This document shows, piece by piece, positions 1,972 through 14,475 of a DNA stretch of 64,000 bases. A program made the position numbers and the translations under genes. The notes under the pieces are model-generated. The model had not been told where the DNA came from. It did no database searches and was given only the letters and a program-made list of their open reading frames with translations. The stretch lies in NCBI RefSeq assembly GCF_044324875.1, contig NZ_CP172185.1. One strand, written 5' to 3'. Position 1 is the stretch's first letter; each line of letters opens with the position of its first letter. Origin of the DNA: Escherichia coli. GTDB lineage: Bacteria; Pseudomonadota; Gammaproteobacteria; Enterobacterales; Enterobacteriaceae.

Positions 1972-3659
1972 TGAAAAACGTTTTATGTGAAACCGCCTCC
2001 GGGCGGTTTTGTCGTTTATGGAGCGTGAGGAATGGGTAAAGGCAGCAGTAAGGGGCATACCCCGCGCGAAGCGAAGGACAACCTGAAGTCCACGCAGTTG
2101 CTGAGTGTGATCGATGTCATCAGCGAAGGGCCGATACAAGGACCGGTGGATGGATTAAAAAGCGTGCTGCTGAACGGTACGCCGGTGCTGGACAGTGAGG
2201 GGAATACCAATATATCCGGCGTCACGGTGGTATTCCGGGCCGGTGAGCAGGAGCAGACGCCGCCGGAGGGATTTGAATCCTCCGGCTCCGAGACGGTGCT
2301 GGGTACGGAAGTGAAGTACGACACGCCGATTACCCGGACCATCACGTCGGCAAACATCGACCGTCTGCGCCTGACCTTCGGTGTGCAGGCACTGGTGGAA
2401 ACCACCTCAAAGGGGGACCGGAATCCGTCGGAAGTCCGCCTGCTGGTTCAGATACAGCGTAACGGTCGCTGGTTAACGGAAAAAGACATCACCATTAAGG
2501 GCAAAACCACCTCGCAGTATCTGGCCTCGGTGGTGGTGGGTAACCTGCCGCCGCGCCCGTTCAGTATCCGGATGCGCAGGATGACGCCGGACAGCACCAC
2601 AGACCAGCTGCAGAACAAAACGCTCTGGTCGTCATACACCGAAATCATCGATGTGAAACAGTGCTACCCGAACACGGCACTGGTCGGTGTGCAGGTGGAT
2701 TCGGAGCAGTTCGGCAGCCAGCAGGTGAGCCGTAATTATCATCTTCGCGGGCGCATTCTGCAGGTGCCGTCGAACTATAACCCGCAGACGCGGCAATACA
2801 GCGGTATCTGGGACGGAACGTTTAAACCGGCATACAGCAACAACCCGGCCTGGTGTCTGTGGGATATGCTGACCCATCCGCGCTACGGCATGGGGAAACG
2901 TGTTGGCGCAGCGGATGTGGATAAATGGGCGCTGTATGTCATCGGCCAGTACTGCGACCAGTCAGTGCCGGACGGCTCTGGTGGCACGGAGCCGCGCATC
3001 ACCTGTAATGCCTGGCTGACCACACAGCGTAAGGCGTGGGATGTGCTCAGTGATTTCTGCTCGGCGATGCGCTGTATGCCGGTATGGAACGGGCAGACGC
3101 TGACGTTCGTGCAGGACCGACCGTCGGATAAGGTGTGGACCTATAACCGCAGTAATGTGGTGATGCCGGATGATGGCGCGCCGTTCCGCTACAGCTTCAG
3201 CGCCCTGAAGGACCGCCATAATGCCGTTGAGGTGAACTGGAGTGACCCGGATAACGGCCAGGAGACGGCGACAGAGCTTGTGGAGGACACGCAGGCCATT
3301 GCCCGTTACGGTCGTAACGTCACGAAGATGGATGCCTTTGGCTGTACCAGCCGGGGGCAGGCACACCGCGCCGGGCTGTGGCTGATTAAAACAGAACTGC
3401 TGGAGACGCAGACCGTGGATTTCAGCGTGGGTGCTGAAGGGCTTCGCCATGTACCGGTGCAAAATGGCATCTGAATCGATCGCAGTTTGGCATTCGAATC
3501 GATCATGATTTGGCATCCATCTCCGATCACAGTTTGGCATCACAATCGATCACGATTTGGCATGCTTCCGATCATTGATTGGCATCCTGCCAGTCACTCC
3601 GGGAATTAACTCTTTTCACCACAGTCTCCATTGCCGTGTTTAAACCAGTGGAGACGTCA

Positions 3660-5225
3660 ATGTCCAGAAAGAGAAAATCCAGGAGCACTATGGAAACCTG
3701 TTTTAAGATCCTTCAGCTCAAGTTCGACAAGAAGCTGACTAACCGTTGTATCGGACTGACGTTACACATCAGCGCCTCAACCGTTTTTGAGGTTCTTGCC
3801 CGCTTCAAAGCCTCTTCTCTGTCATGGCCATTACCTGCTGATATATCCCATGACACGCTGGAGAAACTCATTTTTCCGCCCAAAGACACCTTTGCATCAG
3901 AGCTTGTAATGCCTGACATGTTGTACTTCGATACGGAAATGAGAAAACCAGGTGTGACGCGGCAACTGTTGTGGATGGAATACAAGGCACAGGCGGGTAA
4001 CAAAGCGATGGGATACTCGCACTTCTGCCGTTGCTACCGGGAGTGGAAAAAAACGCGACGTCTCTCCATGCGCCAGGAGCATCGTGCCGGCGAAAAGCTT
4101 TTTATCGACTTCTGTGGTCCTACGGTTCCTGTTATTAATCCGGACACCGGTGAGATACGCCGCGTGGCAATCTTCGTGGCCGTAATGGGGGCGTCCAACT
4201 ATACCTACGTTGAAGCGTGCGAAGGTCAGGACATGATGTCATGGTTAAATGCCCACAGCCGTTGCCTGACCTTCCTGGGCGGCGTACCGAAGCTGCTCAT
4301 CCCCGATAACCTCAGAAGCGCAGTGAAAAAGGCCGATCGATATGAGCCTGTCATCAACGACAGTTATCAGGCACTGGCTGAGCACTATGGCACGGTTATC
4401 ATCCCGGCCCGACCACGCAAACCTAAAGATAAACCAAAAGCAGAAAACGGCGTCCTCATCGTTGAACGATGGCTTCTTGCCCGCATCCGTAATGAAACCT
4501 TCCACACGCTCAGGGCGCTGAATGCGCGCCTTAGGGAGTTACTGACAGACATGAATAACCGGCCAATGAAGGGGTACGGCAATCAAACCCGTGCAGAACG
4601 CTTCCGCATACTGGATGCGCCAGCACTCTCTCCGCTGCCTCTGGCACCTTATGAATACACGGAATACAAAGCTGTGAAGGTTGGCCCTGACTACCACGTT
4701 GAATATGCCCGTCACTGGTACTCCGTTCCACACGAACTGGTCGGTCAGCGTCTGTCACTGAAGGCGGGGCAGTCGGTGGTACAGCTCTGGCACAAGGGGC
4801 AGTGTGTGGCGCAACATCCGCGCAGCACACATGAATATAAACACACAACCAATCCGCTTCACATGCCAGAGCGCCACCGGCAGCACGGGACATGGACACC
4901 GGAACGCCTGATCGAGCAGGGAAAACGTACGGGCCCGTCCACAGGCCGGGTGGTTGAATCCATGCTGAAGGCAAAACCCCATCCGGAACTGGCTTATCGT
5001 GCAGTTCTGGGGCTGCTGGCACTTCAGAAAAAATACGGCCCGGAACGGCTGGAAAAGGCCTGTTACGTTGCCCTGCACTATAACGCCCCTGACAGACGCT
5101 TTATCGACAATCTGCTGCGTCACCATCGGGAGAACCTGGAGCTTCCATTATCCCGCCAGGGCGAACAACATCCGGCATATGCTTCAGAGCATGAAAACCT
5201 GCGTGGTCCGGGCTACTACCACTGA
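3660..5225 (+). CDS. istA: IS21-family transposase IstA
   Basis: About 520 aa with N-terminal HTH region (...LSWPLPADISHDTLEKL...) and an IstA-like central/C-terminal region; start chosen at ATG 3660, upstream alternative start possible. Confidence 0.75.
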   Translation: MSRKRKSRSTMETCFKILQLKFDKKLTNRCIGLTLHISASTVFEVLARFKASSLSWPLPADISHDTLEKLIFPPKDTFASELVMPDMLYFDTEMRKPGVTRQLLWMEYKAQAGNKAMGYSHFCRCYREWKKTRRLSMRQEHRAGEKLFIDFCGPTVPVINPDTGEIRRVAIFVAVMGASNYTYVEACEGQDMMSWLNAHSRCLTFLGGVPKLLIPDNLRSAVKKADRYEPVINDSYQALAEHYGTVIIPARPRKPKDKPKAENGVLIVERWLLARIRNETFHTLRALNARLRELLTDMNNRPMKGYGNQTRAERFRILDAPALSPLPLAPYEYTEYKAVKVGPDYHVEYARHWYSVPHELVGQRLSLKAGQSVVQLWHKGQCVAQHPRSTHEYKHTTNPLHMPERHRQHGTWTPERLIEQGKRTGPSTGRVVESMLKAKPHPELAYRAVLGLLALQKKYGPERLEKACYVALHYNAPDRRFIDNLLRHHRENLELPLSRQGEQHPAYASEHENLRGPGYYH

Positions 5226-5241
5226 CAGAAGGAACAACAGT

Positions 5242-5997
5242 ATGAGTGATAACCTGTTAAACAAACTGACCCAACTGAAACTCCCGGCGATGGCCGGGAG
5301 CCTGATACGGCAGCGGGAAACGCCTCAGACCTACGACGAACTGTCGTTCGAGGAAAGGCTGACGCTGCTGGTTGATGACGAGCTTCTGAGCAGGGAAAAC
5401 AGCCGTGTGGCACGGTTGAGAAAAAATGCCGGCCTGAAATACCAGGCAACACCGGAAGGGCTGCGCTATCCGGCCTCAAGAGGTCTGCGGGCTGAACAGA
5501 TGAGAGAACTGCTGAACGGCCACTACATAACCCACAGGAAAAACCTGCTGATAACCGGTCCGACAGGATGTGGCAAGAGCTGGATAGCCAATGCGCTGGG
5601 CGAACAGGCATGTCGACAGAAACACAGCGTCCGGTACTGTAGAACCGGGCGATTACTGGAACAACTGGCTCAGGGACGTGTTGATGGCAGCTGGCTGAAA
5701 TATCTGAAACAGTTGCAAAAAATACAGGTTCTAATCCTGGACGATCTGGGGCTGGAACAGTTAAGTAACGCCCAGTGTAATGACCTTCTGGAGCTCATAG
5801 AGGATCGTTACGGACAAAGCAGCACGATAGTGGTAAGCCAGTTCCCGGTAGATAAATGGCATGGTCTGATGGAGAACCCAACAACAGCAGATGCCATCCT
5901 GGACAGACTGGTACATAACTCACACCGAGTGGTCCTTCAGGGAGAGTCACTGAGGAAAAATCCCCCGGTAGTGGAAAGCAGCGAAAAAACGCGTTAA
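5242..5997 (+). CDS. istB: IS21-family helper ATPase IstB
   Basis: 251 aa; Walker A GPTGCGKSWIANALG; Walker B LILDDLG; typical IstB size and position after istA. Confidence 0.85.
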   Translation: MSDNLLNKLTQLKLPAMAGSLIRQRETPQTYDELSFEERLTLLVDDELLSRENSRVARLRKNAGLKYQATPEGLRYPASRGLRAEQMRELLNGHYITHRKNLLITGPTGCGKSWIANALGEQACRQKHSVRYCRTGRLLEQLAQGRVDGSWLKYLKQLQKIQVLILDDLGLEQLSNAQCNDLLELIEDRYGQSSTIVVSQFPVDKWHGLMENPTTADAILDRLVHNSHRVVLQGESLRKNPPVVESSEKTR

Positions 5998-8218
5998 AAA
6001 GCGGTAGAAAAAGTTAAGTTCCCGGTTGATCGAATGGATGCGAATCGCTGATCGGACTTCGATGCCAATCCGTGATCGAATAGAGCGGAATACGCATACC
6101 GGGCGATGTCATTGAAATCTGTGATGATGACTATGCCGGTATCAGCACCGGTGGTCGTGTGCTGGCGGTGAACAGCCAGACCCGGACGCTGACGCTCGAC
6201 CGTGAAATCACGCTGCCATCCTCCGGTACCACGCTGATAAGCCTGGTTGACGGAAGTGGCAATCCGGTCAGCGTGGAGGTTCAGTCCGTCACCGACGGCG
6301 TGAAGGTAAAAGTGAGCCGGGTTCCTGACGGCGTTGCCGAGTACAGCGTGTGGGGGCTGAAGCTGCCGACGCTGCGCCAGCGCCTGTTCCGCTGCGTGAG
6401 TATCCGTGAGAACGACGACGGCACGTATGCCATCACTGCCGTGCAGCATGTACCGGAAAAAGAGGGCATCGTGGATAACGGGGCACACTTTGACGGTGAC
6501 CAGAGCGGCACGGTGAATGGTGTCACGCCGCCAGCAGTGCAGCACCTGACTGTCGAAGTCACCGCAGACAGCGGGGAGTATCAGGTACTGGCCCGCTGGG
6601 ACACGCCGAAGGTGGTGAAAGGCGTGAGTTTCATGCTTCGCCTGACCGTGGCAGCGGATGACGGCAGTGAGCGGCTGGTCAGCACGGCCCGGACGACGGA
6701 AACCACATACCGCTTCAGGCAGCTGGCGCCGGGGAACTACAGGCTGACAGTCCGGGCAGTAAATGCCCGGGGGCAGCAGGGAGACCCGGCGTCGGTATCG
6801 TTCCGGATTGCCGCACCGGCAGCGCCGTCGCGGATTGAGCTGACGCCGGGCTATTTTCAGATAACCGCCACGCCGCATCTTGCCGTTTATGATCCGACGG
6901 TGCAGTTTGAGTTCTGGTTCTCGGAAAAGCGGATTACCGATATCAGGCAGGTTGAAACCACAGCCCGTTATCTTGGTACCGGAAGTCAGTGGCTTGTCTC
7001 CGGCCAGAATATTAAACCTGGCCATGATTATTACTTTTATATCCGCAGTGTTAACACTGTCGGTAAATCGGCATTCGTGGAGGCAGTCGGTCGGGCGAGT
7101 AATGATCCTGCCGGTTACCTTAATTTTTTCAGGGGGGCGATAAATAAAACGCATCTGGGACGGGAGATCAATGAACGCATTGATGCCTCTGCACGGCGCA
7201 CTGAAGTTGAGCAACTGGAGAATGCGATTAACCGCGAAATGACGCAGCTGGAGAATGCGATTAACCGCGAAATGACGCAGCTGGAGAAAGATGTGAGGCA
7301 GCGTGCGGAGCGTGATATCGCAGAGGTGACGAAAAAAATCACGGCGTCTGAAAACAGCATAACGGAACTGGTGGCGAAAAAGAGCGGTGAACAGTCGCTG
7401 GCCATTGCGAAAGTCGACAGGAAAGTTGACAGCGTGAGCAGTGAAATCCGGCAGACAGTAAGCAGGAGCACGGAGGAGAACAGCCGACAGATAGCGCAGG
7501 TCAGGCAGTATGTTGATGATAAAAGTGCGCAAATAAGTACTGTTGTGGCGAAAAAGAGCGGTGAACAGTCAATGGCCATTGCGGAAGTTGACAGAAAAGT
7601 TGACAGGATGGGCAGCGAAATCCGGCAGACAGTAAGCAGGAGCACGGAGGAGAACAGCCGACAGATAGCGCAGATCAGACAGTATGTTGATGATAAGGGA
7701 AGTCAGATCAAACAGAGCACGGATAAAAAACTGGGATCCTGGAATGCCAGCATTGAGCAGATACAGAAAGTTCAGGAGGACACGCGCCGGAACCTGAACA
7801 GCATGTGGGCTGTGAAGCTGCAGCAGACACGGGATGGACGTCTCTATATTGCAGGTATTGGTGCCGGAATCGAAAATACGTCTGACGGAATTCAGAGTCA
7901 GATCCTGATGCAGGCAGATCGTATTGCGATGATTAACCCGGAAAATGGCAATACAACACCTTTGTTTGTGGCTCAGGGTGATCAGCTGTTCATGAATGAT
8001 GTTTTCATGAAAAAACTGACCGTGGATTTTGCCAGAGTGACGGGAGATATCCGGTCAGATAATTTTCATTCCGGTAGTCCGGGGTGGCGTTTATCAAGAA
8101 ACGGCAGCCTTGAAATTAACTCAGGAAGGCCCGGCGCAGGCCGCCTGTTTTTCAATGGCGAGCGAATCGACGTATATGACGATAACAATGTGTTAAGAGT
8201 ACGACTGGGGAGACTGTA

Positions 8219-8479
8219 ATGTTCGGAGTCCGGGTATGGCGCAAAGGGCGCCTTGTGACACATGAAATAAACCCAACAGGGGTGCTGGATGTGATCACTG
8301 AAGGGACGGGGCAGCGTTCTTATACTCCTTTGCAGGGCTGGCGTCTGGAAGTCTGTTCACCGGCCATTCTGATTAACGGTCAGGGAAGTCATACCAGTGC
8401 CAGTGTATCCGGCTGGACAGTGCACTATGCCAACACAAGCTGGCTAAGACCCGTGCTGGTCATGATAAGGGGGATCTGA
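8219..8479 (+). CDS. Hypothetical phage protein, translationally coupled to J (TAATG overlap)
   Basis: 86-aa ORF starting on the J stop codon; no motif I can recognise. Confidence 0.4.
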   Translation: MFGVRVWRKGRLVTHEINPTGVLDVITEGTGQRSYTPLQGWRLEVCSPAILINGQGSHTSASVSGWTVHYANTSWLRPVLVMIRGI

Positions 8480-9141
8480 TGTTTGCACTTAAATTAACTG
8501 ATGAGCGGGGGAGAGAATGGATATCACCTGTTGCGCCGCCACTGAACCTTGTGCGCCGTTTTCATTTCACACTGAGTGCGCGTGATGCGGTGATGCAGTT
8601 TATCGACACCGGGGTGCCGACGAATTATCGTTGCGTGATTTTTATTAAACAGATAAGCGGTAATCAGTCCTTCCATGGTGAAATGGTTCAGCTTAACGGT
8701 ACCTGGCAGTATGACATTTTCAGCGCTGGTACAGGGCAGGAGCCGGGCATGGAACAGGACAGCACATATGTTGTTTATGTTTTTGCCAACATGGTGAATG
8801 TATGGCCGCAATGGGGAATACAGTTGTGCGACAGTCATGGCAGGGTGGTCTGGAACACGGAAATGCTGCCACTGGAAGTAAAAATGACGCGAATATGGGA
8901 AAAGGATGTACCGATCAGTGTGGGACATGATGTGGCCGTAATGCCGGGGTGTACCCAGTGGACGACAGTTCAGGAAGGGGAGAGTTATTACTGGTATACC
9001 GCCAGTTTTAATGCCAGAAACTCACAGTTATGGCGTCAGTCAACTTTTGCTGAAGATAACGTAGCGGCGCCCAATGATAATTCAGGTGTTGTTAATAACC
9101 TCTGTTATTACATAAATGCAGAAATTTATGATGCGTACTGA
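8479..9141 (+). CDS. Hypothetical phage protein (tail-associated or moron), coupled by TGATG overlap
   Basis: 220-aa ORF, Trp/Tyr-rich, no recognisable catalytic motif; sits between J and the side tail fiber. Confidence 0.45.
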   Translation: MFALKLTDERGREWISPVAPPLNLVRRFHFTLSARDAVMQFIDTGVPTNYRCVIFIKQISGNQSFHGEMVQLNGTWQYDIFSAGTGQEPGMEQDSTYVVYVFANMVNVWPQWGIQLCDSHGRVVWNTEMLPLEVKMTRIWEKDVPISVGHDVAVMPGCTQWTTVQEGESYYWYTASFNARNSQLWRQSTFAEDNVAAPNDNSGVVNNLCYYINAEIYDAY

Positions 9142-9483: not shown

Positions 9484-10812
9484 ATGGCGGCTGTAAAAAT
9501 TTCAGGCGTGCTCAGGGACGGAACCGGAAAACCGGTACCGGGATGCATTATTGAGCTGAAAGCGAAGAGAACCAGCGAGACAGTCATCGCCACGACAGTG
9601 GCTTATGGCATGCCGGAAGAGACGGGGAGTTACAGTATGGATGTGGAGCCAGGAATATACAGGGTGACACTCAATACAGAAGGTTACCGTCCTTCGTATG
9701 TGGGAGATATCGTGGTCAGGGAGGATTCTTCACCGGGAACACTGAATAAATTTCTGATGGAGATGGAAGATGCTCCTTATTATCCGAAGGCGTTGTCAGA
9801 GCTGGAGGCTGTGGTGCAGTCCATACTGCACAGAGCAGAGTCCGCGGCATCTGAGGCGGAGGAAGCCCGGAAGCGAGCAGCATCTGCCCGGGGACCACGA
9901 GGAGAGAAAGGGGATACCGGCGCTCGTGGTGAAAGAGGCATTACCGGGCCACAGGGGCCAAAAGGTGAAACAGGAGCACGTGGCCCGGCAGGACCACAGG
10001 GACCAAAAGGTGAAACAGGTGAACGCGGTCCGGCAGGTCCACAGGGACCAAAGGGCGATACAGGTGAACGCGGCCCGGCAGGTCCACAGGGACCAAAAGG
10101 TGAAACAGGTGCACGTGGTCCGGAAGGTCCACAGGGAGCAAAAGGTGAAACAGGTGAACGCGGCCCGGCAGGTCCACAGGGAGCAAAGGGCGAAACAGGT
10201 GCACGTGGTCCGGAAGGCCCTCAGGGTCTGAAGGGAGAAAAGGGTGAGCGAGGAGAAAAAGGCCCTAAGGGGGATAAAGGAGATCCGGGAGGTCCACAGG
10301 GACCAAAAGGTGAAACAGGTGAACGTGGCCCGGCAGGTCCACAGGGACCAAAAGGTGAAACAGGTGAACGTGGCCCGGCAGGTCCACAGGGACCAAAGGG
10401 CGATACAGGTGAACGCGGTCCGGCAGGTCCACAGGGGCCAAGAGGGTATACAGGTGAACGCGGGCCGACAGGTCTACAGGGGCCAAGAGGGTATACAGGT
10501 GAACGCGGGCCGGCAGGTCCACAGGGGCCAAGAGGAGAAGCGGGGCGGCCAGCGAGCGTCGGAAGTGTTTATTCCGTGGGGTCTTATGTTCTGGGGATCA
10601 TAGAACGAAATCATGAGATAACAAATACCCGTCAAATACCCGGGTATCGTATCAGACAGGCCGTTATTGTGTCGTCGTCATCGGATAAACTTACAGATAT
10701 CCGCTTTTTATTTGGCAATCCTATGCTTGGTACATGGATGTTATGCACAACTAACATGGCGGTGAATAATATCAGTGGGACGATTTGGGGCCTGTTTCAG
10801 AGAATACTGTGA
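9484..10812 (+). CDS. Prophage side tail fiber protein with collagen-like Gly-X-Y repeat region
   Basis: N-terminus [29 protein letters not shown]... resembles the Stf N-terminal domain of E. coli prophages; about 220 aa of GxY triplets ([19 protein letters not shown]...). Confidence 0.8.
9886..10548 (+). repeat. Tandem, roughly 45-bp coding repeats (collagen-like Gly-X-Y) inside the tail fiber gene
   Basis: Repeated [15 protein letters not shown] units at nucleotide level; the ORFs in other frames and on the opposite strand over this stretch are repeat artefacts. Confidence 0.8.
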
Positions 10813-11002
10813 CAGGGGGAGAAATGAATGAAGGTCGATAAAATCACGTCACCAGTGTGGGCTGACAGGGGTCATACGACCATAAACTGTATAGTGAAGT
10901 TTTCAGACGCGGAAACAGAATGTGTATTTACAGCAAGTGCGGATGATCCGTAACCGGCTCATTTAAACCGTCTGGTCTGTTTCCTCCGGCTCTACAAAAA
11001 TA

Positions 11003-11680
11003 ATGTCCATCATTTTTAATGGACACTATCGTATGAAACACCGGACCTGGATCACTGAAGCTTTACGTCTTCACTTTGAAGAACATTTACCCCGGGTTGT
11101 GGCCGGGCGTCGCCTGGGTGTACCAAAATCAACAGTTTGTAGTATGTTCGTGCGCTTTCGGAGAGCTGGCCTTTCGTGGCCTTTGCCCGCAGGCATGTCG
11201 GAGCAGGAACTTGATGCCTGCCTTTACGGACAATTTTCCACGGTACCAGTCGTACGTCCTGAAAGCACCGTTATATCCGAAGCCCCCGTGGTAAAAAAAC
11301 GTCCCCGGCGGCCCAACTTCCCTTATGAGTTTAAAATCGCCTTAGTGGAGCAGTCACTGCAGCCCGGAGCCTGTGTGGCGCAGATCGCCCGGGAAAACGG
11401 AATCAACGATAACCTGCTCTTCAACTGGCGCCATCAATACCGGAAAGGTGGCCTGCTGCCTTCCGGAAAAAATATGCCGGCACTGCTTCCCGTGACGTTA
11501 ACGCCGGAGCCGGATAATAAAATCCCGGCCCCCGCACAGGAACCAGAGCAGATAAATACACCGTCCGACAGTCTGTGTTGTGAGCTGGTTCTGCCGGCCG
11601 GAACTCTCAGGCTTAAAGGTAAACTGACGCCGGCGTTATTACAGACACTTATCCGCGAAATAAAAGGGAGCAGCCACTGA
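11003..11680 (+). CDS. tnpA: IS66-family accessory protein (orfA/TnpA) with N-terminal HTH extension
   Basis: C-terminal part ...PNFPYEFKIALVEQSLQPGACVAQIARENGINDNLLFNWRHQYRKG is IS66 orfA-like; N-terminal part carries an LSWPLPA HTH-like motif. Start codon uncertain. Confidence 0.7.
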   Translation: MSIIFNGHYRMKHRTWITEALRLHFEEHLPRVVAGRRLGVPKSTVCSMFVRFRRAGLSWPLPAGMSEQELDACLYGQFSTVPVVRPESTVISEAPVVKKRPRRPNFPYEFKIALVEQSLQPGACVAQIARENGINDNLLFNWRHQYRKGGLLPSGKNMPALLPVTLTPEPDNKIPAPAQEPEQINTPSDSLCCELVLPAGTLRLKGKLTPALLQTLIREIKGSSH

Positions 11681-12027
11681 TGATATCTCTCCCTGCAGGT
11701 TCGCGTATCTGGCTGGTTGCAGGTATCACCGATATGCGAAATGGCTTTAACGGCCTGGCATCAAAAGTTCAGAACGTCCTGAAGGATGACCCGTTCTCCG
11801 GACACCTGTTCATCTTCCGCGGACGCCGGGGTGACCAGATAAAAGTGTTGTGGGCTGACAGTGACGGACTGTGCCTCTTCACCAAACGCCTGGAGCGGGG
11901 CCGCTTCGTCTGGCCAGTCACCCGTGACGGCAAGGTGCACCTTACTCCGGCTCAGTTATCCATGCTTCTTGAAGGTATCAACTGGAAGCACCCGAAACGA
12001 ACGGAACGCGCTGGAATCCGCATATAA
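11680..12027 (+). CDS. tnpB: IS66-family TnpB (Orf2)
   Basis: 115 aa MISLPAGSRIWLVAGITDMRNGFNGLASKVQNVL...; overlapping start with orfA stop. Confidence 0.85.
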   Translation: MISLPAGSRIWLVAGITDMRNGFNGLASKVQNVLKDDPFSGHLFIFRGRRGDQIKVLWADSDGLCLFTKRLERGRFVWPVTRDGKVHLTPAQLSMLLEGINWKHPKRTERAGIRI

Positions 12028-12046
12028 CCCGTTGTAAAGTGAGGAT

Positions 12047-13618
12047 ATGGACACCTCACTTGCTCATGAGAACGCCCGCCTGCGGGCACTGTTGCAGACG
12101 CAACAGGACACCATCCGCCAGATGGCTGAATACAACCGCCTGCTCTCACAGCGGGTGGCGGCTTATGCTTCCGAAATCAACCGGCTGAAGGCGCTGGTTG
12201 CGAAACTGCAACGTATGCAGTTCGGTAAAAGCTCAGAAAAACTTCGTGCAAAAACCGAACGGCAGATACAGGAAGCACAGGAGCGAATCAGCGCACTTCA
12301 GGAAGAAATGGCGGAAACGCTGGGTGAGCAATATGACCCGGTACTGCCATCCGCCCTGCGCCAGTCTTCAGCCCGTAAACCGTTACCGGCCTCACTTCCC
12401 CGTGAAACCCGGGTTATCCGGCCGGAAGAGGAATGCTGTCCTGCCTGTGGTGGTGAACTCAGTTCTCTGGGATGTGATGTGTCAGAGCAACTGGAGCTTA
12501 TCAGCAGCGCCTTTAAGGTTATCGAAACACAACGTCCGAAACAGGCCTGTTGCCGGTGCGACCATATCGTGCAGGCACCAGTACCTTCAAAACCCATTGC
12601 ACGCAGTTATGCCGGAGCGGGGCTTCTGGCCCATGTTGTCACCGGGAAATATGCAGACCATCTGCCGTTATACCGCCAGTCAGAAATATACCGTCGTCAG
12701 GGAGTGGAGCTGAGCCGTGCCACACTGGGGCGCTGGACAGGTGCTGTTGCTGAACTGCTGGAGCCGCTGTATGACGTCCTGCGCCAGTATGTGCTGATGC
12801 CCGGTAAAGTCCATGCTGATGATATCCCCGTCCCGGTCCAGGAGCCGGGCAGCGGTAAAACCCGGACAGCCCGGCTGTGGGTCTACGTCCGTGATGACCG
12901 TAACGCCGGTTCACAGATGCCCCCGGCGGTCTGGTTCGCGTACAGTCCGGACCGGAAAGGTATCCATCCACAAAATCACCTGGCCGGTTACAGCGGTGTG
13001 CTTCAGGCCGATGCTTACGGTGGTTACCGGGCGTTATACGAATCCGGCAGAATAACGGAAGCCGCGTGTATGGCTCATGCCCGGAGAAAAATCCACGATG
13101 TGCATGCAAGAGCGCCCACCTACATCACCACGGAAGCCCTGCAGCGTATCGGTGAACTGTATGCCATCGAGGCAGAGGTCCGGGGCTGTTCAGCAGAACA
13201 GCGTCTGGCGGCAAGAAAAGCCAGAGCCGCGCCACTGATGCAGTCACTGTATGACTGGATACAGCAACAGATGAAAACACTGTCGCGTCACTCAGATACG
13301 GCAAAAGCGTTCGCATACCTGCTGAAACAGTGGGATGCACTGAACGTGTACTGCAGTAATGGCTGGGTGGAAATCGACAACAACATCGCAGAGAACGCCT
13401 TACGGGGAGTGGCCGTAGGCCGGAAAAACTGGATGTTCGCGGGTTCCGACAGCGGTGGTGAACATGCGGCGGTGTTGTACTCGCTGATCGGCACATGCCG
13501 TCTGAACAATGTGGAGCCAGAAAAGTGGCTGCGTTACGTCATTGAACATATCCAGGACTGGCCGGCAAACCGGGTACGCGATCTGTTGCCCTGGAAAGTT
13601 GATCTGAGCTCTCAGTAA
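12047..13618 (+). CDS. tnpC: IS66-family transposase TnpC
   Basis: 523 aa; N-terminal coiled coil, Cys cluster CCPACGGEL...CCRCDH, DDE-type catalytic region. Confidence 0.85.
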
Positions 13619-14475
13619 ATATCAATACGGTTCTGACGAGTCGCTTACGATGATCCTGAGTCTTACGGTCGTGAAATATTTGAAGCCTGCATAAGAGGTG
13701 ATGCAGGGCCGGTAGGTGAGTACCGGGCAAATGATGATATGGCTGTGGAAGAAGCACGCAGGATGAAAAACGCGGAGATAAATGCCTGGCGTGATGCGAT
13801 GGAGGCGTCAGGGTATGTTTTTGAGCACAGAGGACGGAAATGGGATTATGGAAAGGAAACCATGACACGTCTTGGAATGTCGGCATCAGCGGCCAGAGGC
13901 GGTGTGTTGCCGGAAGGATTTTTCTGGACGGACGCAGAGAATAATGATGTACCGATGACGGCAGATGAACTGATATCCCTGAGTGATGCTGCTGGTAAAG
14001 CGATGTTCAGGAAAGGCCTTGAAATACATATAAGGCAAAGGGAGATGAAAAAGGCAATAGCAGAACTGAGTGACAGTGAAACCATTCTGGCGTACAGGGT
14101 TGGATGGTGAAACTGATAAAAAAACCCCTCTGAAAATTCTGTCAGAGGGGGGCAAGGATCTATATTTATTATGCGGTAATGCTTTCACTCCGGTAATTAA
14201 TTTCAGTGATTAACTGCTTTCGATCAATAAAGGAATTGCAAAAAGGTGATCTTGTTCACGACATTGTGGATGATAATATGCCTGATGTCTGAATCCGGAA
14301 ACAGTGATCTGGCGGGTTTCATGTGAAGTTGACGGATAAAAAATCCGCACGACCAGACAGACGTGCGGTTTACGAAATTCGTAACAAGAGGCTTTTCTAG
14401 GGATCACGTGGTGCGTGCCACGTGAAATTTTTGTAGCGCAAAATGTGTAATGTGTAAATACAAGGAAGGAAAAAG

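Follow-up and report, generated by a model that had tools for sequence, protein, structure and literature searches.

An intact ISSso4-like element of the IS21 family has very probably transposed into the lambda-type tail-tip gene J of an Escherichia coli prophage, separating codons 475 and 476 of the gene. This lambdoid prophage adjoins zinT-msrQP-hprRS in the chromosome; its left part extends beyond the 64-kb stretch of DNA analysed here (the window). The element is an already known one and the lesion a routine gene disruption, probably recent. The relevant features are:

2032..3474, plus strand: 5' part of tail-tip gene J, codons 1-475, then five fused codons (VQNGI) and TGA
3452..3457, unstranded: left copy of the target-site duplication TACCGG, present as a single copy in the AR_0085 empty site
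3458..6096, plus strand: complete IS21-family insertion sequence, 2,639 bp, TG...CA ends, PGAP label ISSso4 family
3458..3586, plus strand: left terminal inverted repeat region, terminal site TGCAAAATGGCATC and five internal GATC-N5-TTGGCAT sites
3660..5225, plus strand: istA, DDE transposase, start at 3660 or 3690 (NF033546, Pfam and IS5376 homology)
5242..5997, plus strand: istB, AAA+ helper ATPase (NF038214 and IS5376 IstB homology)
6027..6096, minus strand: right terminal inverted repeat region, two internal GATC-N5-TT(G/C)GCAT sites and a terminal site ending ...GCA
6097..6102, unstranded: right copy of the target-site duplication TACCGG, a perfect 6-bp match to the left copy
6103..8219, plus strand: 3' part of J, restored codons 476-1180, with FNIII-like and coiled-coil repeats and the C-terminal fibre/receptor-binding part
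10950..13648, plus strand: second insertion sequence, IS66-family (ISCro1-like; tnpA, tnpB and transposase gene), with an 8-bp duplication GATGATCC

The interrupted J gene

The target of the insertion is a lambda-type J gene whose frame is restored by excision. Removing the element and one TACCGG in silico yields an ORF of 3,543 nt (1,180 codons) with no internal stop, as the first-pass annotation had proposed. Alignment of this ORF to intact J genes, the check that the annotation had suggested, showed the full-length collinearity characteristic of lambda gpJ (PDB: 8iyk; residues 1-838 collinear at 1,805 bits, with a further C-terminal match), and the region of the excision joint matches lambda gpJ exactly. 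Both halves are recovered by the PHROG family phrog_31 'central tail fiber J' (E-value 2.4e-302 for the 5' part), and the 5' part is identical or near-identical to residues 1-475 of lambda gpJ. The ORFs upstream encode the minor tail protein L, K (of the C40 peptidase type) and the tail assembly protein I, placing the gene at the end of an L-K-I-J module. A second comparison is with the intact gpJ of E. coli AR_0085, to which the restored protein is 92% identical overall; the sole large difference is one coiled-coil repeat, and the first 2,500 nt differ by 11 synonymous and 3 non-synonymous changes. The exact empty site, 60 nt in which TACCGG occurs once, is likewise found in AR_0085, at position 8571 of its locus sequence, and the joined J flanks have uninterrupted homologues in more than 4,400 genomes.

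As it stands in the window, J has no intact reading frame, being split at codon 475/476. Codon 475 ends within the TACCGG at 3452-3457, and the last base of this hexamer opens the first fused codon, GTG; five sense codons then precede a TGA at 3472-3474, inside the left end of the element, which corrects an earlier description of J as stopping 11 codons after the RHVP motif. The 3' part has no upstream start of its own, its first in-frame start being the GTG at 6159. Neither half contains stops or frameshifts, in agreement with the earlier remark that the flanking J sequence shows no decay. A 512-aa ORF on the minus strand (5994-7532), which is antisense to J, was taken to be spurious.

Structure of the element

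The assignment of 3458-6096, which has the same orientation as J, to the IS21 family is supported by its istA and istB genes, its TG...CA ends (TGCAAAA...ACGCA), its multi-repeat terminal inverted repeats and the short, 6-bp target-site duplication. The istAB element in J with a TACCGG duplication that had been proposed in the first-pass annotation is thus confirmed, coordinates included. The duplication ends at exactly 6 bp, with the 7-mers differing, and a random 6-bp match at fixed boundaries has a probability of about 1/4096. Target-site duplications in the IS21 family range from 4 to 8 bp.

Terminal inverted repeats of IS21-family elements comprise multiple direct repeats, and a terminal CA is required (PMC10122671); the window's element has inverted repeats of this kind. 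A repeat search recovered five copies of a 20-nt unit, 22-24 nt apart, between 3475 and 3586. When sites are counted by the presence of TGGCAT, the left end has six of them: four exact copies of TTTGGCAT, one ATTGGCAT and the terminal AATGGCAT, with the internal ones likewise spaced at 22-24 nt. At the right end there are three such sites, inverted relative to these, with the internal ones at 6038-6053 and 6062-6077. The earlier description of five iterated left-end repeats was therefore right as to their iterated, IS21-type nature, while the count becomes six sites, four of them exact. Searching for GATC-N5-TTGGCAT with at most one mismatch gave eight matches in the window against 1.57 expected from shuffled sequences; five lie in the left end on the plus strand and two in the right end on the minus strand. 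The left-end sites are presumably the binding sites of IstA.

Both genes are intact and follow one another on the same strand with a 16-nt gap, in the two-gene layout of the IS21 family. IstA scores 284.6 bits against NF033546 (NCBIfam curated cut-off 160) and contains the Pfam domains rve (131-245) and Mu-transpos_C_2 (316-387), that is, a DDE core of the RNase H-like type followed by a Mu-type beta-barrel. It is homologous to the IS5376 IstA (PDB: 8b4h and 8q4d) in an alignment that spans the core, from which acidic residues in the FIDF, PDN and KAENG motifs can be read as aligned with those of the IS5376 protein. Its translation could start at either of two in-frame ATGs, at 3660 and at 3690, both of which have a Shine-Dalgarno sequence (GGAG and AGGAG, respectively); PGAP chooses 3690, giving a protein of 511 aa. 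IstB scores 257.8 bits against NF038214 (curated cut-off 200), shows the Walker A (GPTGCGKS) and Walker B (LILDD) motifs of an AAA+ ATPase, and is homologous to the IS5376 IstB (PDB: 8q3w and 5bq5), with the Walker motifs aligned to those of 8q3w.

IS21 from plasmid R68.45 and IS5376 from Geobacillus serve as mechanistic models for this element. It shares with them the istA-istB layout, the TG...CA ends, a DDE transposase with a Mu-like beta-barrel, a DnaC/MuB-like AAA+ helper, terminal repeats of iterated IstA sites and a short, variable target-site duplication (PMC10122671). The relationship to the IS5376 proteins is distant (E about 1e-13 for IstA and 1e-24 for IstB), the window's IstA exceeding the 400-residue IS5376 protein by about 110 residues, and the element's six left and three right sites differ from the usual L1-L2(-L3)/R1-R2 arrangement. 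By analogy with these models, IstA would bind the iterated sites in both ends and synapse them, while IstB would assemble on the target DNA and recruit and activate IstA; staggered strand transfer and subsequent repair would then generate the 6-bp TACCGG duplication.

A further difference from the IS21 model concerns the promoter: when the right end was joined in silico to the left end with spacers of 0-8 bp, no junction promoter was detectable, the best candidate matching the sigma-70 consensus at 7 of 12 positions. Likewise, an in-silico search of 3300-6300 on either strand found no scoring sigma-70-like site. With no istA promoter detectable in silico, the window's copy can be called no more than apparently active. 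Indirect indications of transposition competence are its intact genes and ends and the identical copies at many sites, conjugative plasmids among them.

Other copies of the element and the integrity of the junction

Full-length copies, 100% identical over 2,639 bp and annotated as istA/istB, occur in other E. coli chromosomes and in conjugative plasmids. Such ISSso4-like elements of Escherichia and Shigella (PGAP 'IS21-like element ISSso4 family') encode the same IstA and IstB products (WP_045147483.1 and WP_001282653.1) and have the same ends and a similar range of duplication lengths, so that the window's element differs from the identical copies in its insertion site only; the name ISSso4 rests here on the PGAP family label of identical IstB proteins and not on an ISfinder reference. 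Copies whose IstA is labelled 'ISSso4 family transposase' by PGAP include one at 96.3% nucleotide identity. Since the literature on ISSso4 yielded no stated length of target-site duplication, nor any end structure, we measured the duplications directly on individual copies. Nine other full-length copies from other E. coli records have the same first and last base, unrelated flanks and 0-1 nt differences; eight are flanked by duplications (5, 6, 5, 5, 7, 4, 7 and 6 bp) and one by none. Among 50,697 deposited phage records the full-length element is absent, and only remnants of 91 bp at 92% identity occur, in Stx2a phages. The same element has independently entered another J gene, that of strain VTB97074v, where it lies in the opposite orientation at about codon 767.

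Many strains carry several copies of the element, at up to 23 places per genome, and multi-copy repeats are classic sources of misassembly. Given also that the J::IS junction is unique to the window, a repeat-induced misjoin that placed a copy inside an intact J was weighed. A misjoin would not, however, create a perfect 6-bp target duplication at both exact ends of the element, of a length typical for its other copies, nor would it leave the J halves adjacent, collinear and in frame after excision; we accordingly give an assembly artefact almost no credence and retain genuine transposition as the explanation.

A search of 5,426 complete E. coli genomes did not recover the filled junction, no GTDB species-representative genome matches its 38-nt left part, and the truncated 480-aa J protein has no exact copy in a public gene-position index. 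With no record of the truncated protein and no junction in the GTDB representatives, the insertion is seen only in this window. It can reasonably be regarded as recent, since the element is 0-1 nt from other copies, both J halves are open, few differences separate the gene from that of AR_0085 and the junction is unique. Relative dating through the second, IS66-family insertion was tried and set aside: AR_0085 and TUM9803 are empty at that site and have insertions of their own elsewhere, leaving no marker shared by descent.

Consequences for the prophage

The insertion divides J in two: an N-terminal fragment of 475 residues, extended by 5 residues that the IS encodes, and a remainder of 705 codons that lacks both promoter and start. 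Full-length gpJ cannot be made from the window's prophage. Lambda tails cannot be assembled without J, whose C-terminus binds the receptor. Because of this established role of J in lambda genetics, loss of tail-tip function is to be expected, and the induced prophage should be unable to build tails unless another prophage provides J, recombination restores it or the element excises precisely. For annotation, this means that the two J fragments are best treated together as a single pseudogene that a mobile element has split, and that the prophage should be scored as tail-defective instead of intact.

J is not the only lesion of this prophage: 4.8 kb further downstream, the second insertion sequence interrupts a DUF4376 tail-fibre-type gene and retains an intact 8-bp duplication. 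The J insertion could thus be real and yet functionally irrelevant, a further hit on a prophage that was already defective and decaying. Compatible with this are the recurrence of ISCro1-like insertions in the same region of related prophages at the locus and the location of the head, lysis and regulatory parts outside the window. Against it, the remaining tail ORFs in the window are open, namely K, I, both J halves, the collagen-like fibre and L up to the window edge. Moreover, the IS66 lesion alone need not be lethal, unlike the loss of J, because lambda can form plaques without its side tail fibres and the factor that assembles them, lambda PaPa itself being stf-defective. We hold prior inactivation to be possible but rather unlikely.

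Still less likely, in our estimate, is that the lesion is masked in vivo by another lambdoid prophage that supplies gpJ in trans or repairs J through homologous recombination. Potential donors are common, the median E. coli genome having J-homologous DNA at 3 places, and defective prophages of O157 have been packaged, transferred and rescued through complementation by, and recombination with, co-resident prophages (PMC2669165). The window itself holds no second copy of J within its 64 kb, however, and the disrupted gene would persist in any particles complemented in trans. The defective Sp prophages of O157 Sakai resemble the present case in having an insertion sequence in a morphogenesis gene of a recognisable lambda-like prophage, with scope for complementation and recombination among sibling prophages (PMC2669165); they differ in the IS family and in the locus, which for the window's prophage adjoins zinT/msrPQ.

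From the geometry of the insertion, we also considered whether it does more than damage, and regard this as very improbable. Read-through of istAB is conceivable because the element is co-oriented with the late operon and a search of that strand found no terminator-like site; if it occurred, late-operon transcription on induction could drive istAB, tying a burst of transposition to the SOS response. Alternatively, the 480-residue J fragment, whose identity to lambda J over the same region is about 95%, could, if stable, act as a dominant negative and poison the assembly of tail tips in lambdoid phages that are co-resident or superinfecting. On the preferred reading of simple gene disruption, the insertion adds one more case, dated by inference, of IS traffic degrading prophages and opens no new question. 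As a separate observation, related prophages at the same locus repeatedly carry ISCro1-like insertions in their tail-fibre region, with three separate hits in the region neighbouring J.

Disruption and restoration of the tail-tip gene J

In the sequence between 3200 and 6400 we found the hexamer TACCGG twice, at 3452-3457 and 6097-6102, separated by 2,639 bp with TG as the first and CA as the last two bases. The flanking identity is exactly 6 bp, with the 7-mers differing. The J-type ORF, upstream of which lie homologs of lambda L, K and I, starts at 2032, is interrupted by foreign DNA from 3458 onward and ends with a stop codon at 3472-3474. The truncated protein accordingly ends in GAEGLRHVP followed by VQNGI, i.e. 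five fused codons, rather than the 11 that the first-pass annotation had counted after RHVP. The 3' part of J is devoid of a start of its own save an internal GTG at 6159.

Removal of 3458-6102 yields an ORF of 3,543 nt (1,180 codons) free of internal stops, whose product matches lambda gpJ (PDB: 8iyk) residue for residue over positions 1-838, exactly across the joint, and again in the C-terminal fiber part. Compared with the 1,238-aa gpJ that E. coli AR_0085 carries intact, the restored protein has an overall identity of 92%, and the sole large difference is one additional coiled-coil repeat of ~58 aa in AR_0085; 14 differences, of which 11 are synonymous, separate the two genes within their first 2,500 nt. 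AR_0085 also provides the empty site, in that the joined 60-nt sequence with a single TACCGG has an exact copy there (L002:8571). In addition, gpJ genes of more than 4,400 genomes show uninterrupted alignments with the 1,200-nt sequence formed by joining the flanks. As excision yields a continuous J ORF, the lack of such an ORF, which had been named in advance as grounds for rejecting the insertion, did not materialize.

J codons ~840-1010 (window 7050-7650) encode a coiled coil of ~58-aa repeats along with an 11-aa sequence in two tandem copies. The repeat number of this tail fiber shaft varies, with the window J being one repeat short of the near-identical AR_0085 J.

Ends and coding content of the IS21-like element

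ORF listing and repeat searches recovered the following features in the element (3458-6096):

3660 or 3690 to 5225, same strand as istB: istA
5242-5997, same strand as istA: istB
Left end: one terminal site and five internal GATC-N5-TTGGCAT sites, spaced 22-24 nt
Right end: one terminal site and two internal sites, in inverted orientation

With one mismatch allowed, eight matches to GATC-N5-TTGGCAT are seen across the 64-kb window where 1.57 would be expected, seven of them in the two ends of the element. The earlier description of five TTTGGCAT repeats was close; four are exact, one reads ATTGGCAT and the terminal site reads AATGGCAT. Structural work on IS21 has described multiple direct repeats per terminal inverted repeat and a requirement for the terminal CA (PMC10122671), both as in the window element.

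The two same-strand ORFs code for an IstA scoring 284.6 bits with the NCBIfam model NF033546 (IS21 family transposase; curated cut-off 160 bits) and an IstB scoring 257.8 bits with NF038214 (IS21-like element helper ATPase IstB; curated cut-off 200 bits). In Pfam searches IstA has hits to the rve integrase core and to the C-terminal barrel of Mu transposase, and it aligns with the solved IS5376 IstA structures (PDB: 8b4h, 8q4d). IstB aligns with its IS5376 counterparts (PDB: 8q3w, 5bq5) and displays Walker A (GPTGCGKS) and Walker B (LILDD) motifs. Together, the 6-bp flank match, the curated models and the end repeats confirm the TACCGG duplication and IS21-family identity proposed in the first-pass annotation.

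Two in-frame ATGs, 10 codons apart, are seen at the start of istA (within 3650-3692), each with a Shine-Dalgarno sequence (GGAG ahead of 3660 and AGGAG ahead of 3690). The arrangement is reminiscent of IS21, whose transposase and cointegrase are distinguished by 8 residues at the N-terminus. In IstA, the HTH region at the N-terminus (3660-3900) matches the IS66 TnpA accessory-protein model NF038385 with a below-cut-off score of 54.8 bits and has the motif LSWPLPA in common with the TnpA of the IS66-family element located 7 kb downstream (11003-11250); the two families thus appear to share a DNA-binding module. No promoter-like sites were found in or around the element.

Distribution of the element and age of the insertion

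Megablast recovered full-length copies, many 100% identical, in 225 of 5,426 complete E. coli genomes, where they are named "istA: IS21 family transposase" and "istB: IS21-like element ISSso4 family helper ATPase" by PGAP. In PLSDB 506 plasmids match, mostly conjugative ones from Escherichia, Salmonella and Shigella, and 232 plasmid records contain a near-full-length copy; none of 50,697 deposited phage genomes has a full-length one. The element is hence already known and circulating, and the present case is that of a known element in an ordinary gene disruption.

For comparison of boundaries and duplications we retrieved nine other copies, each of 2,639 bp, 0-1 nt from the window copy, and with the same end bases in unrelated flanks, which fixes the element boundaries empirically. 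Their target-site duplications are 5, 6, 5, 5, 7, 4, 7 and 6 bp long, with none in one copy; the 6-bp TACCGG is therefore typical. In the strain VTB97074v the same element, 1 nt different (L001 6009-8647), has independently inserted in another prophage J, near codon 767 and in reverse orientation, flanked by the duplication ACCAAG; its excision gives a 1,160-aa J ORF.

A 600-nt left-junction probe recovered no record spanning both halves among the 5,426 genomes, the 38-nt junction was not found in GTDB representative genomes, and look-up of the truncated J protein returned no record. The junction being unique to the window, the insertion is known from the window alone, a circumstance in keeping with a misassembly having put the element inside J. 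However, a misassembly would not yield a perfect target duplication at the exact element ends with both J halves in frame. The insertion is real, and the first-pass annotation had its location right and its interpretation right in essentials, with two small descriptive errors. We infer that the insertion is recent, since the element has hardly diverged from its other copies, neither half of J is damaged and the junction was found nowhere else.

Predicted mechanism and consequence

By analogy with the systems described in PMC10122671 and PMC11208146, IstA tetramers would synapse both repeat-bearing ends, target-bound IstB oligomers would recruit and activate IstA, and staggered joining followed by repair would generate the duplication. 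Of this scheme, which is modeled on the homologous elements IS21 and IS5376, the window provides structural evidence only.

In lambda, tails cannot be initiated without gpJ, whose C-terminal part recognizes the receptor; it follows from this established biology that the 480-residue J fragment would be unable to form a functional tip. Nevertheless, gpJ may be supplied in trans by another prophage, given that E. coli genomes contain J-like DNA at a median of three places each and that cases of defective-prophage rescue have been described (PMC2669165). The prophage may also have been defective before the IS21-like insertion.

A second insertion in the prophage and its chromosomal setting

The window derives from the E. 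coli chromosome, where the prophage, whose left part falls outside the window, adjoins zinT-msrQP-hiuH-hprRS. The region 3' of J includes:

Genes: two small ORFs, a Cor-like lipoprotein, a collagen-repeat tail fiber gene and a DUF4376 tail-fiber-type gene
10950-13648: complete IS66-family element (ISCro1-like), 2,699 bp, with tnpA, tnpB and a transposase gene
10942-10949 and 13649-13656: its 8-bp target-site duplication, GATGATCC

The IS66-family element splits the DUF4376 gene, and its excision gives a 191-aa ORF. Related prophages at the same zinT/msrPQ locus in AR_0085 and TUM9803 carry the empty site for this insertion and harbor ISCro1-like copies of their own at other places in the tail-fiber region (L002 12080-14782 and L011 1857-4557, respectively); hence, the window prophage has at least two lineage-specific IS lesions. 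An ISCro1-like element occupies a different position in this region in each of the three related prophages, suggesting either that the region has been hit repeatedly and independently or that it is a preferred target.

The segment 15170-15240 is similar to the 3' portion of a tRNA (…GGTTCAAATCCCCCTCTCTCCGCCAC) and probably represents the att core, duplicated at the right prophage end; ARAGORN predicted no tRNAs in the window, and Rfam gave only weak sub-threshold matches at this segment. The side tail fiber gene (9484-10812) encodes a long collagen-like G-X-Y run, resulting in many internal DNA repeats.
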